Source: an uncultured Candidatus Saccharibacteria bacterium (GTDB lineage Bacteria > Patescibacteriota > Saccharimonadia > Saccharimonadales > AWTP1-31). From it: a stretch of DNA of 24,304 nt. Below the pieces are notes generated by a model. It searched no databases. It was not told the origin of the DNA and was given only the letters and a program-made list of their open reading frames with translations. The position numbers were made by a program, and so were the translations under genes. Position 1 is the first letter of the stretch. Every line of letters begins with the position of its first letter. Shown in pieces: positions 8,841 through 22,227 of this stretch. Location of the stretch: NCBI GenBank assembly GCA_964442995.1, contig CAYUBG010000001.1, forward strand, positions 1 to 24,304, read 5' to 3'.

Positions 8841-11800
8841 TTACGCCTCCTCCTTTACTTCGGGTTCAGCCGAATCGTTTTCGTTATCATCATTTGTATC
8901 ATCAAGTGCTATGGCGTCATCTGTAGAAACATCGGAAATTCCGGTGTCGTCCAAGATTTCGAATTCACTAGCAACCATTTCTTCAGTTACATCCATAGGA
9001 ACACTCTGTTCAGGGTGAACTTCTGGCATATGCTCAGCTTCGTCAGCTACCACTGCTTCTAGTACTTCTTCTGCATCGAATTCTTTACCTTCGTTAATTA
9101 GATCAACGCGAAGACTAAGACCTTGAAGTTCTTTTACAAGCACGTTAAAGCTTTCTGGAATCTTCGGACCAACAATTGGTTCTTGCTTAATGATTGATTC
9201 GTAGGCCTTAGAACGACCGTAAACGTCATCAGACTTAAGTGTCAGCATTTCTTGCAGGGTATTTGCAGCACCATATGCTTCTAGTGCCCATACTTCCATC
9301 TCTCCAAATCGCTGACCACCATTTTGCGCCTTACCACCAAGTGGCTGTTGAGTCACCATAGTGTACGGGCCAATACTTCGGGCGTGGATCTTATCTGCAA
9401 CCATGTGGTGCAATTTAATAATGTGCATGATGCCGACCGTTACTCGTTCTTTAAAGTATTCTCCGGTTCGTCCATCAATAAGTTCCTGCTTACCATCATC
9501 TGGCAAACCGGCTTTCTTGAGTTCAGCCTTAATAGTACTGACTGGAACACCGTTAAACGCAGGTGTTGCCGTAGTGTAACCAAGTACGGTTGCAGCTATA
9601 CCAAGATGTGTTTCGAACAACTGGCCAATGTTCATACGAGAAGGCACACCAAGTGGGTTAAGTACAATATCGACAGGAGTTCCATCTTCAGTGAATGGCA
9701 TATCTTCTTCTGGCATGATTCGAGCAACTACACCCTTGTTACCGTGACGTCCAGCAAGCTTATCGCCAACTGCGATCTTACGCATCTGAGCGACAAAGAC
9801 CTGTACCTGCATAAGCACACCGGCTTTAAGATCATGACCGTTTTCACGACTAAAGATCTTAACACCAACAACTTTTCCGTGCTTACCGTTGTTCATTCGT
9901 TGTGAAGTATCACGAACATCTTTAGCTTTTTCACCAAAGATCGCACGCAGCAGTCGTTCTTCAGAACTTAGCTCTTGTTCGCCCTTTGGTGTAATTTTAC
10001 CAACCAAAATGTCGCCAGCTTTTACTTCGGCGCCAATGCGTACAATACCGTTTTCGTCTAGGTGACGAAGGCTTTCTTCTGAAACATTCGGAATATCGCG
10101 TGTAACAATTTCAGGGCCAAGCTTAGTTTCACGAACTTCTACCATGTAATCACTAATATGAATACTAGTTAGTTCGTCGTCTTCTACGATGCGCCGTGAA
10201 ATAACAATTGAATCTTCGAAGTTATAACCACCCCACGGCATGAAGGCAACAGTTAAGTCTTTACCGAGTGCAAGTTCACCGCCATCAGTGCTCATGCCGT
10301 CAACTAGAACGTCGCCAGCTTTTACAGAATCACCGGTGTTAACAACAACTTTTTGGTTCATTGAAGAACCTTCATTTGTACGGACAAAATGCTGTAATTT
10401 GTAGGTTGTTGAGTTCTTAGCGTACTTAACAACCACTTCGCTTGCATCAGATTTTGTAACTGTACCGTCTGCTTCGGCATAAACTACCAGGCCGCTGTTC
10501 TTTGCAACAACTTCTTCCATACCAGTTCCAACCACAGGAGCCTTAGTCTTAATAAGTGGAACAGCTTGTTTCTGTTGGTTAGAGGCAATAAGAGCACGTC
10601 CTACAGCATCTTTTTCAGCGAAAGGAATCAGTGATGCTGTTGAACCAAGAATCTGGTTACGAGTTGCATCCATGTGGGTTACAAGTTCGGCGTCAACTTC
10701 TTCTGGCTGCAATTTAACACGTGCTGAAACACGTTCATCGGCGAATGAACCGTCTTTATTAAGTTCCATACCTGCTGATGCAATCACGGCCTTCTTTTCT
10801 TCGTCAGCATCTAGATAAACTACTTCTTTGGTTACTTTGCCGTTCTTAACAACTCGGTATGGTGATTCAATGAAGCCATATTCATTTACGCGGGCATATG
10901 AACCAAGGTTAAGCACCAAGCCAATGTTGGCACCTTCAGGCGTTTCTACAGTACATAAACGTCCATAGTGTGTTGGATGTGCATCACGCACTTCAAAGCC
11001 AGCGCGTTCTCTAGAAAGACCACCAGGACCCATAGAACTCAGGCGTCGCTTGTGGGCTAGTTCTGAAAGTGGGTTGGTCTGATCCATAAACTGTGAAAGT
11101 TGTGAACTTGCAAAGAATTCGCGAACAGCCGCGACAATTGGTCGGGCATTAATAAGCTGTGCAGGAGTAACAGTTTCAATCTCTGACATGCTCATGCGAT
11201 CTTTGGCATTTCGTTCCATTCGAAGCAAACCAATGCGGAATTGACGTTGTACTAGCTCACCAACCATTTTTACACGGCGGTTTGCAAGGCTATCAATATC
11301 ATCTGGAGCATCTTGCGTGTTATTTAGACGAATGATTTCCTTTACAATTGCTACAAGATCATCTAGTCGCATAACACGGTTTTCAGCTGTGTTGGCAACG
11401 TCAATTTCAAGACGTTTATTCATTTTATAGCGTCCAACACGTGAAAGATCAAAACGTTTGAAGTTGAAGAATACGTTTTCAATAAGACTTCGGGCGTTAT
11501 CTACAGTTGCAAGATCACCCGGACGAATACGTCGGTAAACTTCGATCAAAGCGTCGCTGTTACCTTTGCTTGGATCTTTAGCAATAGTTGCATCTAGGTA
11601 GTTAACTTCACCAGTATCAACATCTTTAAAGATATCTTTTAGCTGATTAGTCTGTGCGTAACCAAGGGCTCTTAGTAGTGTAGTAACGGCGATTTTACGT
11701 CGGCGATCAATTTTTACGTAAATTGCACCGTTAGCAGCTGTTTCGAATTCCAACCATGCGCCACGGCCGGGGATAAGCTTGGCGCCGTATAGGTTTCTTC

Positions 11801-12254
11801 CACCGCTTTTTTCGGCAGTAAAGAAGATACCAGGACTTCGAATAAGTTGACTTACAACAACACGTTCAGCACCATTAATTACAAAAGTACCACGTGATGT
11901 CATCCACGGGTAGTCACCAAGGTAGATTTCTTGTTCTTTAACTTCGCCAGTTACTTTATTAGTAAGTTCAACGTTCGCATATAATGGAGCGTCGAAACTA
12001 ACATTGTTTTCGCGAGCTTCAAGTTCGCTGATTTTTGGATCAGCAAAACGATAATCTTTGAAACGAAGTTCAAGTTTAGTGCCAGTATAGTCTTCTATTG
12101 GGTTAACCTCTGCGAAAATTTCGCCGAGGCCTTCCTGTACGAAGTTCGTAAACGACGTAGTTTGATGTTCAATTAAGTTTGGTAGCGCTAGCGCGTCATC
12201 GACCTGTGTAAAGTAGACTCGCTTGTTGCGCTTTTTCAGATCTGTCTTAGCCAT
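8841..12254 (-). CDS. rpoB: RNA polymerase beta subunit
   Basis: SQLSQFMDQ, ETPEG, GYNFEDS, GDKLAGRHGNKG, GGQRFGEME. Start moved to ATG 12254, preceded by AAGGAG. Confidence 0.99.
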   Translation of the reverse strand: MAKTDLKKRNKRVYFTQVDDALALPNLIEHQTTSFTNFVQEGLGEIFAEVNPIEDYTGTKLELRFKDYRFADPKISELEARENNVSFDAPLYANVELTNKVTGEVKEQEIYLGDYPWMTSRGTFVINGAERVVVSQLIRSPGIFFTAEKSGGRNLYGAKLIPGRGAWLEFETAANGAIYVKIDRRRKIAVTTLLRALGYAQTNQLKDIFKDVDTGEVNYLDATIAKDPSKGNSDALIEVYRRIRPGDLATVDNARSLIENVFFNFKRFDLSRVGRYKMNKRLEIDVANTAENRVMRLDDLVAIVKEIIRLNNTQDAPDDIDSLANRRVKMVGELVQRQFRIGLLRMERNAKDRMSMSEIETVTPAQLINARPIVAAVREFFASSQLSQFMDQTNPLSELAHKRRLSSMGPGGLSRERAGFEVRDAHPTHYGRLCTVETPEGANIGLVLNLGSYARVNEYGFIESPYRVVKNGKVTKEVVYLDADEEKKAVIASAGMELNKDGSFADERVSARVKLQPEEVDAELVTHMDATRNQILGSTASLIPFAEKDAVGRALIASNQQKQAVPLIKTKAPVVGTGMEEVVAKNSGLVVYAEADGTVTKSDASEVVVKYAKNSTTYKLQHFVRTNEGSSMNQKVVVNTGDSVKAGDVLVDGMSTDGGELALGKDLTVAFMPWGGYNFEDSIVISRRIVEDDELTSIHISDYMVEVRETKLGPEIVTRDIPNVSEESLRHLDENGIVRIGAEVKAGDILVGKITPKGEQELSSEERLLRAIFGEKAKDVRDTSQRMNNGKHGKVVGVKIFSRENGHDLKAGVLMQVQVFVAQMRKIAVGDKLAGRHGNKGVVARIMPEEDMPFTEDGTPVDIVLNPLGVPSRMNIGQLFETHLGIAATVLGYTTATPAFNGVPVSTIKAELKKAGLPDDGKQELIDGRTGEYFKERVTVGIMHIIKLHHMVADKIHARSIGPYTMVTQQPLGGKAQNGGQRFGEMEVWALEAYGAANTLQEMLTLKSDDVYGRSKAYESIIKQEPIVGPKIPESFNVLVKELQGLSLRVDLINEGKEFDAEEVLEAVVADEAEHMPEVHPEQSVPMDVTEEMVASEFEILDDTGISDVSTDDAIALDDTNDDNENDSAEPEVKEEA

Positions 12255-12414
12255 AGGCAGAATAAAGCTCCTTGGATTTAAGTGCTTCGTAAGCAACAGC
12301 TTAGAATGCGCATAAATACGTTAATTAAAATTGATCACCGAAGTTCCCTTAAGTCGTCTGTTTTGCTAGCGTGCACCAAAAGCAAAACGTCACTTACACT
12401 ACCTCTTGTACTCA

Positions 12415-12443
12415 ATTCTGCGCTATCAGATCAAAATTGTCAA
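12415..12443 (-). promoter_or_regulatory. Sigma70-type promoter for rpoBC
   Basis: Perfect TTGACA (12438-12443), 17 nt, CAGAAT (12415-12420). Confidence 0.7.
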
Positions 12444-12454
12444 CAATAAAGCTG

Positions 12455-13165
12455 TTAGTCCCTAACTTTTTCAATTGGATGACCACTTGTTGAAGCGTGG
12501 ATCCATAGTGCTCGAGGTTGCTGCGCACCATCACCGAGAGTAGCAATGCGTTGCCTCAGCGAAGAAATTGGCGGAATTAATCGTGAATCCCATCGTAAAG
12601 CACGCTTCATTCCGGCATTCGTGGCAGTATCTATTGCTGCAGTATTTTCTGGTCGTATCAGAGTTACCGAAAGGGCAACTTCGCTAGCTCCTAGAGCTAC
12701 CGAAGGATTTCGTAGAATATGTTTTAGGGTTTGTTCTGGCAATCCTTCCGGGTGACTATTAGCCACCCACCCAGATACAGACGAAACATCAACAAGCGAA
12801 TGAACACCAAGCACCCCTCCATACTGTGTGCCATGCCACGCCTGTATCACACGTAGAATACGTTGTTGTCTAGGAGTCAAGCGATCTTTTGCTGTAAAGC
12901 CGTATGCAACAATGTTATCTGGGTCTGTTGCAATCCAGGCATTAAAACCAGATCCAGAATCCAAAGTTGCCACGGCTGCACGAGCCGTAGACCGCCTTGC
13001 AGTTTCATTATGCATGTATAGCCTGGTGGCACTAGGAAATTCGGTATCTAGTCGCATTCGGTTATCTATAACAGCACACTGAAGTTTATATGCGTCATCT
13101 GGTTCTATTGGTCGGATAGTAAATTGTTCGGTTTCTAAAGCGCTCATTGCATTGTTATAACTCAT
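12455..13165 (-). CDS. Divergent GNAT (RimJ/RimL-like) fold protein, paralog A
   Basis: FTIRPIEPDDA N-terminus, VSGWV strand and IRPENTAAI...AGM motif-B-like segment; no canonical Q/RxxGxG loop. Confidence 0.55.
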   Translation of the reverse strand: MSYNNAMSALETEQFTIRPIEPDDAYKLQCAVIDNRMRLDTEFPSATRLYMHNETARRSTARAAVATLDSGSGFNAWIATDPDNIVAYGFTAKDRLTPRQQRILRVIQAWHGTQYGGVLGVHSLVDVSSVSGWVANSHPEGLPEQTLKHILRNPSVALGASEVALSVTLIRPENTAAIDTATNAGMKRALRWDSRLIPPISSLRQRIATLGDGAQQPRALWIHASTSGHPIEKVRD

Positions 13166-13206
13166 CTGATCAGATATTACCAGATGTTCCAGTAGTTTTT
13201 ATAAGG

Positions 13207-13884
13207 CTAGCTAGCAAGTTGCATGACATATTTGACGCCTGGATATGTTCTACCCTCTACCTTTACTGAATCTCTACCGCCAGATTCAAAGCCGTATGAA
13301 GGAAGTTCAAGCATATTTTCAGGCACGACTAATCTGTTTTGGTTGCCAGATTCAAACGGTACAACAGTCTGGATGGTGTCAACACCCGCTGCACGACATA
13401 CCGCTATGCCTCCCGCCAAAACCCCACTAGCAACTACCGAGTCTTCAAGTTTGTACGCCCTGGTTCGCTCACTGTCAAACCACGAAGATAAATGACGAGT
13501 CCGCTGTTTGGGAGAACGTATTTTTTGTACAATCCTATTAGAGAACTTTTCTGAATCTTGTGGAACACCCGCTACCATCGTGCCGATCGCTTGCAGATTA
13601 GCGGTCTCGTCTTCTAGACTTACAAGATACGCTCCGACAGATTTAGATCTTTCCAAAGCTTCAATTCTTTGTCGCGACGATTCTACTGTTTTATAACGTG
13701 CCGGCAAAGAAGGGTCAAGAAGCGCCGAACGAAAATCCTCTTCAGTAAATTGTGCATAAAGTTCAGTTACTGCTTCTGGGTGATCACCATCGGAACACAA
13801 ACGTTCAAAGTGGATATTAAATAAACCTATCGGCAAAGCATTGGTTGCTTGATCTGGAAAATTAAGCTCACGGTTTTTTGTCAT
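13207..13884 (-). CDS. Hypothetical protein, probable divergent GNAT fold, paralog B (225 aa)
   Basis: Start at ATG 13884, directly after TGGTATAAT. The longer track ORF overlaps the neighbouring gene. LSSWFD motif shared with its neighbours. Confidence 0.6.
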   Translation of the reverse strand: MTKNRELNFPDQATNALPIGLFNIHFERLCSDGDHPEAVTELYAQFTEEDFRSALLDPSLPARYKTVESSRQRIEALERSKSVGAYLVSLEDETANLQAIGTMVAGVPQDSEKFSNRIVQKIRSPKQRTRHLSSWFDSERTRAYKLEDSVVASGVLAGGIAVCRAAGVDTIQTVVPFESGNQNRLVVPENMLELPSYGFESGGRDSVKVEGRTYPGVKYVMQLAS

Positions 13885-13890
13885 ATGTAT

Positions 13891-13899
13891 ATTATACCA
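13891..13899 (-). promoter_or_regulatory. Extended -10 promoter, predicted leaderless mRNA
   Basis: TGGTATAAT followed 6 nt later by the ATG at 13884; no Shine-Dalgarno. Confidence 0.7.
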
Positions 13900-13939
13900 T
13901 TTTTTGTCAACTATTCGTAATTTCGCAATAACAAATAGT

Positions 13940-14584
13940 TTAAAGATTTTTAGTCCATAGCTCAGAAACATAGAATTTACCATCAGAAACAACACCCTTG
14001 ATACCTTTCGATTTGAATTCAAGTATGTCCGGATCGGCAATCAGACGATCGAGCGCAACGAGACGGCCAGCATAATCAGAACCACTCGAACGATCGATCA
14101 TGCAGACAGCATCAGCACCTTTGTGCCTCGCTAAATCTACTGCTGTAGATACAACATTGTAAGCAAACCCAGAAAACGTAAGTCTTCCGCGGTAAGGTTC
14201 AAGCGCATCTGTATCAACCCAGGCGCTGATTAATCTGTTATCCCGTTTTTTATGCAGAACTGAACGTTGCTCTATAACTGGGCTTACTGCAACCATTCCA
14301 ATAGGTTTAACACAGTTGCGTTCAAGCTTGTCTGATTCTACTATCACAAACGAATCTCTTGCCCGCACTTTTGTACCTGAACTTGGAAAATCTTCGGCTA
14401 CAACACCAGGATCTGCACCAACCGCTAGTAATTGTTCTGAGGTGTGTTGCGCTAGAAACTCTCCAAGAGCATCACGGTTGCTTCGGTAGTATAGATACTC
14501 ACCAAGAGGTCTAAGTATTGTAGGTTGCTTACGAACTTCACAGCCTCGTTCGTGTAAATGTGGGGATGTTGTTACATATGTCAC
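13940..14584 (-). CDS. Hypothetical protein, probable divergent GNAT fold, paralog C (214 aa)
   Basis: GTG start (uncertain); PIGMV and ISAWVD motifs, YRGR remnant loop, ARHKGADAV helix. Confidence 0.55.
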   Translation of the reverse strand: MTYVTTSPHLHERGCEVRKQPTILRPLGEYLYYRSNRDALGEFLAQHTSEQLLAVGADPGVVAEDFPSSGTKVRARDSFVIVESDKLERNCVKPIGMVAVSPVIEQRSVLHKKRDNRLISAWVDTDALEPYRGRLTFSGFAYNVVSTAVDLARHKGADAVCMIDRSSGSDYAGRLVALDRLIADPDILEFKSKGIKGVVSDGKFYVSELWTKNL

Positions 14585-14607: not shown

Positions 14608-15192
14608 TTATTTTGGAGGTTGGGTAATGATTTTGTCAATTAGACCGTACTTTAGTGATTCCTCGGAATTCATCCAGAAATCTCGTTCCATGTCTTCGTG
14701 GATTCTTGCACGTTTTTGCCCAGTATTCTTGGTCATAATCTCTTCCAGAAGTCCTTTTATGCGAAGGCTTTCTTTTAGATCAATCTCTTGATCGGTTACT
14801 TTGCCTCTGGTACCGCTTGACGGTTGATGAATCATAACAGTTGAATTAGGAAGTAAGAATCGTTTACCCTTTGTACCGGATGAAAGTAAAAATGCAGCCG
14901 CGGAAGCTTGCATACCTATACCAACAGTTTGGACGTCGTTTTGAATATACTTCATGGTATCGTAGATGGCTAAGGCATCGTATGCGCTTCCACCAGGGCT
15001 ATTAATATACATGTAGACATCTTTTTTGGCATCTTCAGATTGCAAGAACAGAAGCTGTGCGACAATAATACCAGCAGTATGTTCATTCACCTCATCGTGA
15101 AGAAAGATTATACGATCTCTTAACAAACGACTGTAGATGTCGAAAGCTCGTTCGCCCTGGCCAGATGGTTCTATAACAGTAGGTATCAACAT
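14608..15192 (-). CDS. clpP: ATP-dependent Clp protease proteolytic subunit
   Basis: DIYSRLLRDRIIFL, YINSPGG, catalytic ASAA (Ser), IHQP (His), ERD (Asp). Confidence 0.98.
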   Translation of the reverse strand: MLIPTVIEPSGQGERAFDIYSRLLRDRIIFLHDEVNEHTAGIIVAQLLFLQSEDAKKDVYMYINSPGGSAYDALAIYDTMKYIQNDVQTVGIGMQASAAAFLLSSGTKGKRFLLPNSTVMIHQPSSGTRGKVTDQEIDLKESLRIKGLLEEIMTKNTGQKRARIHEDMERDFWMNSEESLKYGLIDKIITQPPK

Positions 15193-15201
15193 AATACCCT
15201 G

Positions 15202-15230
15202 ATTGTAGAGTTTCTAGCACTCGCTGTCAA
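15202..15230 (-). promoter_or_regulatory. Sigma70-type promoter for clpP
   Basis: TTGACA (15225-15230), 17 nt, TACAAT (15202-15207), 9 nt, ATG. Confidence 0.85.
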
Positions 15231-15240
15231 CGACTGCTAA
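15214..15240. promoter_or_regulatory. CIRCE element (HrcA operator)
   Basis: Minus strand TTAGCAGTC-N9-GAGTGCTAG versus consensus TTAGCACTC-N9-GAGTGCTAA: 8/9 in each arm with exact spacing; the -35 box lies in the spacer. Confidence 0.85.
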
Positions 15241-15528
15241 TTATTCTGAGTTTTCTACTTCACTTTGCAATAAAGGCTCTCGACGGACAGCCACGCCCTT
15301 AACGATGCTCGCCAATCCGCCGAATGCTAAAGCACTGACACAAATCATACGCTCCACACCCCGGCCCTGGAACGCCTGGTCGTACTGAGCTCCAATAGAG
15401 GCAATTAGCCATGAACTGCCGTACAATATTCCTTCAGCTGGTGTTTCGGGCTTTAGTTCTTTCAATCCATCCAGTAGATCTGATTCTGCCTTATTAACGA
15501 CGGATTTAAGAACATTATGTAGTGACAT
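15241..15528 (-). CDS. Hypothetical protein with hydrophobic segments (95 aa)
   Basis: ATG 2 nt after the tig stop; fills the gap up to the CIRCE element. Confidence 0.55.
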   Translation of the reverse strand: MSLHNVLKSVVNKAESDLLDGLKELKPETPAEGILYGSSWLIASIGAQYDQAFQGRGVERMICVSALAFGGLASIVKGVAVRREPLLQSEVENSE

Positions 15529-15530
15529 CG

Positions 15531-16814
15531 CTACTTCTTAGTGGCAATTTCAACTAATCGATCAACTGTTTTTTCAGTCAGAAGCCTTGAGGCGACTTCG
15601 CGTTGCATTTCTGGCTGATCAAACTGGTCGGCATTTTGCTTGTATTGAACTTTATAAAGTTGTGTACGTTCAGCAATCTCTTCATTTGTTACTGTAATCG
15701 CTTCTTGTTCCGCAACCTCGGCAAGCACCATTCCCACTGAAACTCTTCGTTCAGCCTGTGGTTGCAGTTCTTTCTTCTTCCATTCTTCTTCGTCTTTAAA
15801 CCCGGCTTGCTTTAAGTATTCAGCTTTTGTCATGCCTCTGTACACAAGGTTTTGACTGAAATCCTGTTCGAGCATAGCAACTTGATCGTTCACCAAAACT
15901 TCAGGTAGCTTAAATTCAGATTTCTTAACTAGTTCTTCAACTAGTTCATCTTTCATACGATTCAACGCTTCTTGCTGTTTCTGTTCTTCTAGCTGATTTT
16001 TGATATCGGCGATTAGTTCTTTAGCTGTCTTGAATGGGCCGATCTTAGCAGCCAACTCATCATTAACTTCTGGTAGTGTAACTGCTTGAACATTTTTAAC
16101 AGTTACATTGAAGGTTATTGCTGTACCGGCAAGTGTTTGGGCGTGGTAATCCTTAGGAAATGATAGTTTGAGTTCTTTTGTATCACCTTTTTTAACACCG
16201 ATAAGTCCATCTTCAAAGCCAGGTATGAACGAGTTACTTCCAAGATTCAATGAATAATCTGTACCACTCGCGCCAGATACAGACTTTCCATCTTTATCAG
16301 TACCAGTGAAGTCGATTATCACATCGTCACCCTTTTTTGCTGGCTTTTCTGAATCTATTTTCTCGGCCATTTGTGAACGAAGATTACTCAGCACATCTTC
16401 AACATCTTTTTCACTTACCGTAACTTTTGCTACAGCCTTTTTGATCTTTTTGTAATCACCAAGCTTAACTTTGGGCATTATTTCAACTTCAGCTACAAAT
16501 TCGAGTTCAGTATATGGTACAAATTTTCCAATAGTCACATCTGGTTGATTCAGTGTGCGCAATTTCTGTTCTTCAACAGCTTTACCGTAAAAATCATTGA
16601 TAGCGTGGTTGATTACGCTTACCTGAAGCTGATTCTCGTCAAGTTGTTTTTCTACAACCGTAAGGGGTGCCTTACCTTTTCTAAAACCGGCAACTTTTAC
16701 CGTTTTAGCCTGCTCTTGAAGCTCGTGCTGTTTGGCGTGGACCAACTCTTCAAGCCCAAGAGTAATGGTTAATTTAACTTTAGTGTCTGAAATGTCTTTA
16801 CGTGTTACTTGCAT
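15531..16814 (-). CDS. tig: Trigger factor
   Basis: GFRKGKAP ribosome-binding motif, FKBP-type domain (FIPGFED, FPKDYHA); 427 aa. Confidence 0.97.
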   Translation of the reverse strand: MQVTRKDISDTKVKLTITLGLEELVHAKQHELQEQAKTVKVAGFRKGKAPLTVVEKQLDENQLQVSVINHAINDFYGKAVEEQKLRTLNQPDVTIGKFVPYTELEFVAEVEIMPKVKLGDYKKIKKAVAKVTVSEKDVEDVLSNLRSQMAEKIDSEKPAKKGDDVIIDFTGTDKDGKSVSGASGTDYSLNLGSNSFIPGFEDGLIGVKKGDTKELKLSFPKDYHAQTLAGTAITFNVTVKNVQAVTLPEVNDELAAKIGPFKTAKELIADIKNQLEEQKQQEALNRMKDELVEELVKKSEFKLPEVLVNDQVAMLEQDFSQNLVYRGMTKAEYLKQAGFKDEEEWKKKELQPQAERRVSVGMVLAEVAEQEAITVTNEEIAERTQLYKVQYKQNADQFDQPEMQREVASRLLTEKTVDRLVEIATKK

Positions 16815-18669: not shown

Positions 18670-18754
18670 TGGTACGGATGAGAGGACTTGAACCTCCACG
18701 CCTTGCGGCACTAGCTCCTAAGGCTAGCGTGTCTACCAATTCCACCACTCGCGC
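18670..18754 (-). tRNA. tRNA-Leu(TAG), encoded CCA, mispaired acceptor stem
   Basis: D arm GTGGAATTGGTAGACAC, anticodon stem CTAGC/GCTAG with TAG, long variable arm, GGAGG-TTCAAGT-CCTCT, A73, CCA; 85 nt. Confidence 0.9.
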
Positions 18755-18777
18755 GTAAGTGCTGGCACCGGAGTATT

Positions 18778-20190: not shown

Positions 20191-22227
20191 TTAGTTTAGA
20201 TTTGTTATAGCTCGCAGTTGCGAAACTCGTTCATAAAGATGCTTATATTTTAGCAGGTCTAGCCCAGACTCGATAGTCTGTTGCGCGCATTGCCTGGCAG
20301 ATGAAATCAAAGCTGTATCTGTTAATTTAGCTATACGTAGATCTAGTGCACCGTGCTGCAAAGTACCGTAAATAGCCCCTGGACCACGTAGCTCTAGATC
20401 TAACTCGGCTAAGCGAAATCCATCGTTGGTAGTTTCTAGTGCTTTTAGCCGTTTAGATGGAGCTTTTGAGTCGCTTAGAACTAAATAGCAAAAGCCCTGA
20501 TGAGCGCTCCGACCGACTCGTCCGCGCAGCTGATGTAATTGAGCTAAACCAAACCTATCGGCATTTTGAATGATCATAACCGTAGCATTAGGCACGTCAA
20601 CCCCCACTTCCACAACAGTCGTCGAAACCAAAACATCAATATCACCCTTAGCAAAATCTTGCATTATTTGGTTTTTTTGAGCCACGGGTAATTGGCCATG
20701 TAGCAGGCCGACACGGCGATGTTTATATGGACCATTGGCAAATTTTCTGTAAGTTTCTTCGGCTGCTGCCGCTGGCAAAACATCGCTTTCACGTACTAGC
20801 GGACAGACTACGAATACTTGGCTGCCAGATTCAATTTGGTCGTCTATTTTTTTGTGAAGGCCTGCTTGACTGTTAGGAGAAATGATCTCAGTCTCTACAG
20901 GCAAACGATTGCTTGGGCGATTATGAATGATTGATATGTCAAGCTCTCCATAAAGTGTAAGCGCAAGGCTACGTGGAATTGGCGTGGCTGTCATTGTCAT
21001 GATGTGCGGTGCATGACCGGCCTTTTTCATAAGTGATTTGCGTTGTTCGACACCGAATCGGTGCTGCTCATCGATTATTACCAAAGCCAACCGATGCATA
21101 TCAACCTTTTCCTGAATTAATGCATGGGTGCCAATTATGAGTTTTGCCGTGCCGTCAGCTATCCGCCGTCTGGCTTCTTGTTTTTGTTTGTTGCTCATTC
21201 CGCCTACTAACAGCACGACACTTTTGTCGTATCCCAAGTGACGTAACATGTCATACACCGTATCGGCATGCTGCCTGGCTAGTAGCTCTGTCGGAGACAT
21301 GATGGCAACCTGAAGCCCTTGCTTGATTACCATTAATGCCGCCATAGTTGCAACGACTGTTTTGCCAGAACCAACGTCGCCCTCAATCAGCCTGTTCATA
21401 GGCTGATTGGCGGACATATCTTGATATATCTGCCAGATAACCCGGCGCTGGTCGTCTGTTAACACGAAAGGTAGCTTAGCTGTAAATTGCCTGGCCAGAC
21501 TAACATCAAACGGTATTGGCAGAGATGATTCTGAGGCATTGGATCGTTTGTTCAGTAGCGCGGCGAGAGAAAGCTCAAAAACTTCCTCGAATCCCAGTCG
21601 CTCTCTTGCCAACTCTAAATGGTGTGCATTATTTGGAAAATGAACTCCACAAATTGCGTCTGCCCGACTTAGCAATTGTTGAGATGTAACGATATCTGCA
21701 GGCAAGGTCTCTGGCAGATTGCGTATAAGATTGACCGTGGCAGCCACAATTTTACGCATCTGATTACTGGTAAGGCCCTTAGATTCTCTGTAAACTGGCA
21801 CTATACGAGCGGTGTTGAGCGGAAAATCGCTTGCTAATTCGCATGTTGGATTAAGAATCGCGAATTTCTGATGACTTAGAGCAAACTCACCGCTTATATA
21901 GTATTTTTGATGTGGCTTTATGGCAGAAGAGCGATACGGCTGATTAAACCAAACAAGTCTTATGCTGCCAGAGCCATCTGTTGCCACGGCTTCAGTAATA
22001 TGCATACCACGTCTGACGTAACGACCCTGGCTACCAGATATTGTTGCTTCAATTGTTACTGCCCCGGGTTTTAGACTGGCAATATTGGTGATTTTGGAGA
22101 AATCGTTATATTTGCGTGGGTAGTAGTCTATAACATCCGCTACGGTATTTAGGCCTAGGCGCTGCAAAGTTGCAGCCATAGCCGGACCTACGCCCTTGAT
22201 CACACTAATCGGGTCAGATAACTCCAT
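20191..22227 (-). CDS. recG: ATP-dependent DNA helicase RecG
   Basis: GDVGSGKT, IIDEQHRFGV, MTATPIPRSL, QLHQLRGRVGR, DLELRGPG. Confidence 0.98.
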   Translation of the reverse strand: MELSDPISVIKGVGPAMAATLQRLGLNTVADVIDYYPRKYNDFSKITNIASLKPGAVTIEATISGSQGRYVRRGMHITEAVATDGSGSIRLVWFNQPYRSSAIKPHQKYYISGEFALSHQKFAILNPTCELASDFPLNTARIVPVYRESKGLTSNQMRKIVAATVNLIRNLPETLPADIVTSQQLLSRADAICGVHFPNNAHHLELARERLGFEEVFELSLAALLNKRSNASESSLPIPFDVSLARQFTAKLPFVLTDDQRRVIWQIYQDMSANQPMNRLIEGDVGSGKTVVATMAALMVIKQGLQVAIMSPTELLARQHADTVYDMLRHLGYDKSVVLLVGGMSNKQKQEARRRIADGTAKLIIGTHALIQEKVDMHRLALVIIDEQHRFGVEQRKSLMKKAGHAPHIMTMTATPIPRSLALTLYGELDISIIHNRPSNRLPVETEIISPNSQAGLHKKIDDQIESGSQVFVVCPLVRESDVLPAAAAEETYRKFANGPYKHRRVGLLHGQLPVAQKNQIMQDFAKGDIDVLVSTTVVEVGVDVPNATVMIIQNADRFGLAQLHQLRGRVGRSAHQGFCYLVLSDSKAPSKRLKALETTNDGFRLAELDLELRGPGAIYGTLQHGALDLRIAKLTDTALISSARQCAQQTIESGLDLLKYKHLYERVSQLRAITNLN

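Follow-up and report, generated by a model that had tools for sequence, protein, structure and literature searches.

Predicted GNAT-fold proteins without the acetyl-CoA loop in a variable locus between clpP and rpoB of Patescibacteria

What do three adjacent and barely similar genes between clpP and rpoB encode, and how did they come to stand in tandem? The question is raised by a stretch of DNA from an uncultured Candidatus Saccharibacteria bacterium (contig CAYUBG010000001.1 of assembly GCA_964442995.1, positions 1 to 24,304; its whole length of 24,304 nucleotides is referred to here as the window), in which genes A, B, and C had been read, from the letters without database searches, as a fast-evolving tandem expansion of GNAT-like paralogs (Gcn5-related N-acetyltransferases) that lack the acetyl-CoA loop. 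The answer that we consider likely is that the three are GNAT-fold proteins in a replacement-type variable clpP-rpoB locus, that their donor site has been lost, and that the array arose via recombination. The three genes are:

12455..13165, minus strand: gene A, intact open reading frame (ORF) of 236 amino acids (aa), ATG start
13207..13884, minus strand: gene B, intact ORF of 225 aa from its ATG
13940..14584, minus strand: gene C, intact ORF of 214 aa, GTG start

Fold and descent of genes A, B, and C

The longest frame of gene B begins at a TTG at 14040 and would give 277 aa, and the ATG start used here is backed by the lengths of its homologs and by the metagenomic contig L047; the GTG start of gene C is kept in its homologs. 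The AlphaFold2 (AF2) model of gene A (pLDDT 86.8, pTM 0.83) superposes on RimL (1s7l) with Z 17.5, an rmsd of 2.6, and 172/177 residues aligned, on RimJ (3igr) with Z 17.3, and on MccE with Z 16.6. The model of gene B (pLDDT 90.3, pTM 0.88), whose input alignment held no canonical GNAT, matches RimJ 3igr with Z 16.8 (rmsd 2.7, 173/183 aligned), RimL with Z 16.7, and the M. smegmatis RimJ 6c37 with Z 16.5, and the language-model neighbours of B are all GNAT clusters, which we take as a lead only. From these confident models A and B are predicted to be GNAT-fold proteins of the RimJ/RimL type, and C is assigned the same fold because its group aligns by profile with the B group (98.5%, E 3.9e-15, 173 columns in hhalign), so that the GNAT fold spans the whole domain in A and B by their models and in C via the alignment of the two groups. 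The GNAT-like fold that had been proposed without any database search is borne out by these structure comparisons (Z 17.5 for A and 16.8 for B, to RimL/RimJ).

Sequence families do not reveal this kinship directly. Genes A, B, and C have no significant Pfam match, no match to a GNAT Pfam model even at E<=1, no NCBIfam GNAT match, and no PADLOC match, and sequence-profile searches of the PDB returned nothing for B or C and only a weak N-terminal match of A to YdaF (1nsl, E 0.3). The gathering threshold of a GNAT Pfam model is reached, however, by the A-type homologs that occupy the same syntenic position in relatives, a position that we refer to as the slot. The Acetyltransf_3 (PF13302) score of these homologs is 51.2 bits in genome G247, 34.3 in G124, and 26.2 in G231, and the slot homolog of G284 scores 35.2 bits on PF00583; the Pfam signal then fades through P0005, G295, and P0004, down to none for gene A of the window. 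The A clade aligns with the canonical slot GNATs by hhalign (98%, E 2.5e-13), and gene A is a decayed version of the Acetyltransf_3-type gene found in the clpP-rpoB slot of relatives. The canonical slot homologs themselves fall below the NCBIfam equivalog cut-offs for RimJ, RimL, and RimI (15–36 bits vs 86–460), so that these scores give no support for orthology to the three enzymes.

Genes B and C belong to an unnamed family. An exhaustive hidden Markov model (HMM) search of 1.84 billion representatives retrieved 36 family proteins of 180–251 aa, and the ten clusters checked for a name are either unnamed or labelled ‘hypothetical protein’; no member (0/40) matches a GNAT Pfam model. Most of the family is B-like; the small C-like subgroup consists of C, P0018, G231_C, and a few others. 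The B group aligns with the canonical slot GNATs (96%, E 4.8e-9), the B/C family profile (A8) aligns with the A-type profile (A7) at 90.8% and E 1.2e-6, and the A8 HMM matches the canonical G247 protein at E 2.8e-5. Between the window genes themselves, B and C are linked by BLASTP (E 1e-4, 25% over 194 aa), and A finds neither B nor C by direct BLASTP or shallow hhalign; the link becomes visible only with richer profiles, in which A connects to B and C through canonical GNATs alone. Mutual homology of the three, as had been claimed, therefore stands, but only through intermediates. By these profile relationships B and C appear to be two old branches of a sister family without a Pfam match, with the loop lost in every member. 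A search for related loci with B alone as the query led to a single short contig.

What the three proteins share, and what they have lost, is best followed along the strand that first drew attention to them and the segments beyond it:

12764..12778, minus strand: VSGWV, end of strand beta-4 in A (translation, AF2 model, and alignment)
13477..13491, minus strand: LSSWF, end of strand beta-4 in B (translation, AF2 model, and alignment)
14216..14230, minus strand: ISAWV, homologous strand in C (translation and alignment)
12737..12754, minus strand: HPEGLP, residues 138–143 of A, at the motif A position of canonical slot homologs
12644..12655, minus strand: RPEN, residues 171–174 of A, retained beta-5/alpha-4 (motif B-like) signature (alignment)
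13444..13473, minus strand: residues 138–147 of B, beta-4/alpha-3 connection without a glycine-rich loop (family alignment and model)
14168..14212, minus strand: residues 125–139 of C, the corresponding 15-residue connection, which contains YRGR and no motif A (alignment)
13291..13356, minus strand: residues 177–198 of B, an extended segment and two one-turn helices where a long alpha-4 is expected (DSSP of the model)

The sequence-only reading had singled out three ORFs with a common S-x-W strand, and this observation holds in full: the frames are intact and the quoted strands translate exactly. The strand lies in register by profile-profile alignment and falls at the C-terminal end of beta-4 in both the A and the B models, and for these reasons it is homologous and not a chance resemblance. 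The further pairs noted between B and C (AIGTM with PIGMV, and CRAAGVDTI with ARHKGADAV) likewise occupy the same alignment columns. Also correct was the claim that the acetyl-CoA loop is missing, as the pattern [QR]xxGx[GA] occurs nowhere in A, B, or C, and none of the three has the motif A loop, Q/R-x-x-G-x-G/A, between beta-4 and alpha-3. Motif A is found 5–8 residues past the W strand in the canonical slot homologs (RNQGIA, QRSGIG, QNQGVG, RNQGVA), and at this position the A clade has H/R-P-E-x-L/V-P/A. In gene A all three signature positions of the motif are replaced, and two prolines and two acidic residues stand in or beside the loop; R171 and N174, which are invariant across the A-type alignment, are retained along with other invariant residues. 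In the B/C family motif A is present at its normal beta-4/alpha-3 position in none of the 40 aligned members, and the connection between these elements differs in length and sequence from member to member. An E-H pair conserved in most B-like proteins is, by the family alignment, missing from both B and C.

The closest known systems are RimJ, RimL, and the C-terminal domain of MccE (PF13302; 3igr, 6c37, 1s7l, 3r95), which share the fold over ~170–180 of ~180 residues at Z 16–17.5, and gene A has in common with them the N-terminal strand motif and the RPEN...G[FM] type of signature. Unlike these enzymes, the three window proteins match no Pfam or NCBIfam family and lack motif A; alpha-4 is remodelled in the B model, and beta-3 and beta-4 are separated by insertions in both A and B. 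GNAT folds without the canonical acetyl-CoA loop are familiar from the N-terminal domain of MshD, from FemX and the L/F-transferase, which use aminoacyl-tRNA, and from the acyl-ACP-dependent TAAT/HlyC proteins, and the absence of a canonical pyrophosphate loop is what the window genes have in common with them. Those proteins, however, are separate and distinct branches or domains of larger proteins, whereas the products described here are single-domain, stand-alone, and RimJ/L-like, and the loss of the loop can be traced within one syntenic gene lineage. Neither Fem nor L/F-transferase is among the 50 matches listed for each of the A and B models, although absence from those matches does not amount to exclusion.

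A locus of exchanged genes between clpP and rpoB

The genes lie in the minus-strand order tig (15531–16814), a 95-aa ORF, clpP (14608–15192), C, B, A, and rpoB (8841–12296), and the segment that varies is bounded as follows:

14608..15192, minus strand: clpP, conserved upstream flank, 98% amino acid identity to G305
8841..12296, minus strand: rpoB, conserved downstream flank
12455..14100, no strand: variable segment relative to the closest genome, G305, with flanks 92–99% identical

The contents of the slot were surveyed in 15 loci of the f46 type and five of the f1 type, f46 and f1 being tool-assigned families. It holds from zero to three genes across the 15 f46-type loci:

Empty: G315, G210, G187, and G335 (f46)
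One canonical GNAT: G247, G124, G325, G070, and G284
One decayed A-type gene: G295
One B-like gene: G261, and G159 (plus an unrelated 363-aa ORF)
C-like and A-like: G231 and G305
C, B, and A: the window and metagenomic contig L047

B-like or A-like genes stand singly in other genera. Among the five f1 loci, rpoB comes immediately after clpP and on the same strand in four, and the two genes are back to back in the fifth (G002, L015); all f46 loci that extend as far as rpoB have clpP ahead of it in matching orientation. The three genes had been thought to sit where an rplK-rplA-rplJ-rplL cluster commonly precedes rpoB, but since it is clpP, and not this cluster, that stands before rpoB in relatives, they do not replace it.

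Several other features of these loci were recorded. The region was found to hold neither an Rfam family nor repeats that point to site-specific insertion. The slot gene of G284 (L036:4352-4990, G284:C46) matches Acetyltransf_1 at 35 bits, carries the motif QRKGIG, and cannot be linked by BLAST or hhalign to either the A-type or the B/C-type genes; the slot may thus also serve a third lineage of GNATs. The 363-aa ORF in the G159 slot (L028:3485-4576, G159:C1) has no Pfam or PADLOC match and is unlike both the A-type and the B/C-type profiles. Outside the slot, these f46 genomes (0.7–1.1 Mb) have two to seven further Acetyltransf_3 matches apiece, and in G231 two such matches form a tandem pair (G231:C19:16630-17623), a notable GNAT load for small genomes. 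A search of the closest genomes turned up no further copies. Paralog searches of the bin's own genome and of f1 relatives also found none, a result that is partly misleading as the region is foreign to the bin organism. A literature search returned nothing on such genes in Saccharibacteria.

The foreign nature of the region needs explanation. The bin, G000 (790 kb, 97 contigs), is assigned to f1 by the tools, but the rpoB of the window is 92% identical to that of G231 and its ClpP is 98% identical to that of G305, both of f46, with only 73–77% identity of the two to f1 genomes, including G001 of the ‘same genus’. The gene at 20191–22227, by contrast, is 96% identical to G001 and 52% to f46. 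Genes to the left of a tRNA-Leu are 86–98% identical to f46 genomes and 73–77% to the family of the bin, the junction lies near 18670–18756, and G000 has a second tig-clpP-rpoB locus without slot genes on contig C22 (G000:C22:2142-7539). Because rpoB and ClpP are nearest to f46, the 20191–22227 gene is nearest to f1, and a second locus is present on C22, the sequence comparisons indicate that the assembly is chimeric and that the part of the contig carrying A, B, and C is foreign to the bin organism. One homolog carries the name ‘Patescibacteria group bacterium’.

Comparison with G305 shows how abruptly similarity changes within the slot. Nucleotide identity is 93–99% across tig and clpP, 81–94% over the 5' two-thirds of C, and ~60% at its 3' end; gene B is absent from G305, gene A is 56–69% identical, and the 87 bp upstream of rpoB (12367–12453) return to 97.7%. 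Over B and the spacer between B and A, the contig L047 is similar to the window (78–97%, with the spacer at ~97%), and beyond roughly codon 10 of A it matches G305 instead, at 97–100% identity, so that L047 is a direct recombinant with its breakpoint near that codon. The divergence values are:

clpP: dS 0.16, dN/dS 0.04
C: dS 0.53, dN/dS 0.35
B (window vs L047): dS 0.62, dN/dS 0.15
A: dS >2 (saturated), dN/dS 0.10–0.14

These ratios indicate that the genes are under purifying selection, and the pattern as a whole points to an old divergence carried by alleles that have been exchanged between conserved flanks. Relationships were taken from pairwise and profile scores, as alignments at 15–25% identity are too poor for reliable branching in a tree. 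The locus has the properties of a replacement-type variable locus, namely zero to three genes, conserved flanks, and a recombinant mosaic.

Two quite different histories were considered and are contradicted by these data. The sequence-only reading favoured an expanded, fast-evolving family, and a recent triplication in situ with accelerated protein evolution would fit the presence of three homologous genes of similar length that adjoin on one strand, with B and C aligning over nearly their full length. However, B and C are only 25% identical and each has a closer relative elsewhere (B with P0017 at 36% and with G159 at 29%, C with P0018 at 36%), A is linked to them only through canonical GNATs, synonymous sites are saturated with dN/dS well below 1 (0.10–0.35), B-like and A-like genes are single in other genera, and B is present in L047 but not in G305, with L047 itself recombinant. 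We regard this history as very improbable, and the expansion proposed earlier is not upheld. That the genes are instead decaying pseudogenes or spurious ORFs in an intergenic spacer is the least probable reading of all; A, B, and C do lack a family match and the slot is empty in several relatives, but their frames remain intact in several lineages at 58–97% identity, and both the dN/dS values and the confident fold predictions speak for maintained proteins.

Exchange at a fixed position has a precedent in the replacement flexible genomic islands, which, according to Lopez-Perez et al. (2014; PMC4033161), carry different genes of similar function at the same position between conserved flanks, with homologous recombination implicated. 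The likeness lies in the different genes of similar function at one position between such flanks. Set against these islands, the clpP-rpoB locus is very small (0–2.1 kb, 0–3 genes), its cargo is one cytoplasmic protein superfamily and not surface-polysaccharide or envelope genes, and its neighbours on both sides are essential housekeeping genes, in a genome of only about 0.8–1 Mb.

Donor use and possible roles

We propose that A, B, and C are real genes, each conserved in its own right, whose products are cytoplasmic and have a GNAT fold of the RimJ/RimL/MccE type. In one Patescibacteria family (f46) the slot is either empty, or filled with one canonical Acetyltransf_3 GNAT whose Q/RxxGxG/A loop is intact, or with one to three derived versions. 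Gene A would have descended from the canonical slot gene, losing the pyrophosphate loop (now HPEGLP) and keeping RPEN and most of the invariant core residues, and B and C would be old branches of a sister family in which the loop was lost throughout, with alpha-4 also remodelled in the B model. Homologous recombination at the conserved flanks, and not recent duplication with rapid drift, would then have built the array by putting deeply diverged alleles in tandem. The donor site appears dismantled, yet purifying selection acts on the fold and the acceptor side; B and C have therefore most likely ceased to use acetyl-CoA, and they are probably ligand- or peptide-binding pseudoenzymes or partners of active GNATs. 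Gene A may retain weak or altered use of a donor, and is the likeliest of the three to keep some. The sequence-only reading had raised an aminoacyl-tRNA donor, a binding function, and an effector or toxin role as candidates.

Several points weigh against this account. Gene A keeps RPEN and a normal alpha-4, the argument about the pocket rests on secondary structure and alignments, and what is said of function for A, B, and C is drawn from sequence and models. GNATs bind the CoA pyrophosphate mainly through backbone amides and other backbone atoms, and for this reason loss of the motif is no proof that binding is lost. The recombination inference draws on three related sequences (the window, G305, and L047), and the dS of gene A (>2) lies in the range above 1 where such values are unreliable as numbers. 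The promoter-like elements described below are consensus matches only.

These points bear most directly on the alternative that the three are ordinary acetyl- or acyl-CoA-dependent N-acyltransferases with an unusual loop, with a detoxifying or protein-modifying role like that of MccE, AAC(6'), or RimJ/L. The fold is complete and its best matches are RimL, RimJ, MccE, and AAC(6'), selection is purifying, gene A keeps RPEN together with the invariant core residues of its motif-A-positive homologs, and several other Acetyltransf_3 genes in these genomes show the family to be in active use; the backbone mode of CoA binding noted above would add to this. Nonetheless, we think it unlikely, as gene A has other residues at each of the three signature positions of motif A, with prolines and acidic residues in or beside the loop, the B/C family has no motif at the position and a loop of varying length, alpha-4 is remodelled in the B model, and the conserved B-like E-H pair is missing in B and C. 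Less probable by a good way is a GNAT-type toxin, injected effector, or defence module, whether a TacT/AtaT-like pair or an anti-phage system. Conflict genes are often found in variable, recombining loci, and GNATs that act as toxins or effectors exist, but the known toxins among them depend on an intact acetyl-CoA site, a feature that A, B, and C lack, and Pfam finds no targeting domain. Beside A, B, and C there is no small antitoxin-like ORF, the neighbours being clpP, the paralogs themselves, and rpoB; without such a partner, without motif A, and without a PADLOC match, the genes do not look like a toxin-antitoxin module of the TacT/AtaT type, and neighbouring ORFs and PADLOC give no toxin-antitoxin, defence, or secretion signal.

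Under our preferred account of recombined GNAT-fold alleles with a lost donor site, the diversity of alleles suggests selection on the locus by some varying agent from outside, for example a phage, a host factor, or an antibiotic-like small molecule. A bolder extension, which we hold to be doubtful, is that the slot is a miniature conflict locus in which shuffled, cofactor-less RimJ/L-like alleles act as decoys or sequestering proteins, or as transferases with another donor. Their targets would be variable antibiotic-like molecules, phage proteins, or host factors, a proposal that shares the doubt attached to the conflict locus as a whole. If true, the B/C family would be a new functional class of GNAT-fold pseudoenzymes, kept by balancing or diversifying selection in an epibiont. 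More immediately, a predicted fold and an ancestry can now be given to an unnamed family of about 36 sequence clusters annotated as hypothetical, and one syntenic gene offers a natural series from an intact motif A, to a lost loop, to a remodelled donor site, which is useful for the question of how enzymes turn into pseudoenzymes. Some selective pressure is suggested by the fact that Patescibacteria, even with genomes below 1 Mb, maintain between two essential genes a micro-locus that recombines and is rich in alleles.

Promoter-like signals and neighbouring frames

Each of the three genes had been credited with its own promoter-like signal, which is borne out only in part, by candidate elements before B and A. 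The two elements are:

13891..13899, minus strand: TGGTATAAT, extended -10-like element 6 nt before the gene B ATG (consensus-level match only)
13174..13182, minus strand: TGGTAATAT, extended -10-like element 8 nt before the gene A ATG (consensus-level match only)

Both resemble the promoter-like element of clpP, which has the form TTGACA-17-TACAAT-9 nt-ATG. For gene C there is no more than a weak candidate, which falls within the end of clpP, and a generic promoter scan does not rise above shuffled expectation (8 found vs 6.1 +/- 2.4). The elements of clpP, B, and A lie within 15193–15240, 13885–13939, and 13166–13206 of the window respectively, and end 6–9 nt before the starts. Because they stand so close and no Shine-Dalgarno sequence is found between the elements and the starts of clpP, B, and A, their arrangement suggests leaderless or near-leaderless mRNAs in this lineage, with TGGTATAAT a candidate promoter of a leaderless gene B transcript.

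The 95-aa ORF between tig and clpP (15241–15528), which begins 2 nt past the tig stop and has no Pfam match, is 87% identical in G305, and ORFs of 93–117 aa are found at the same place in other relatives.

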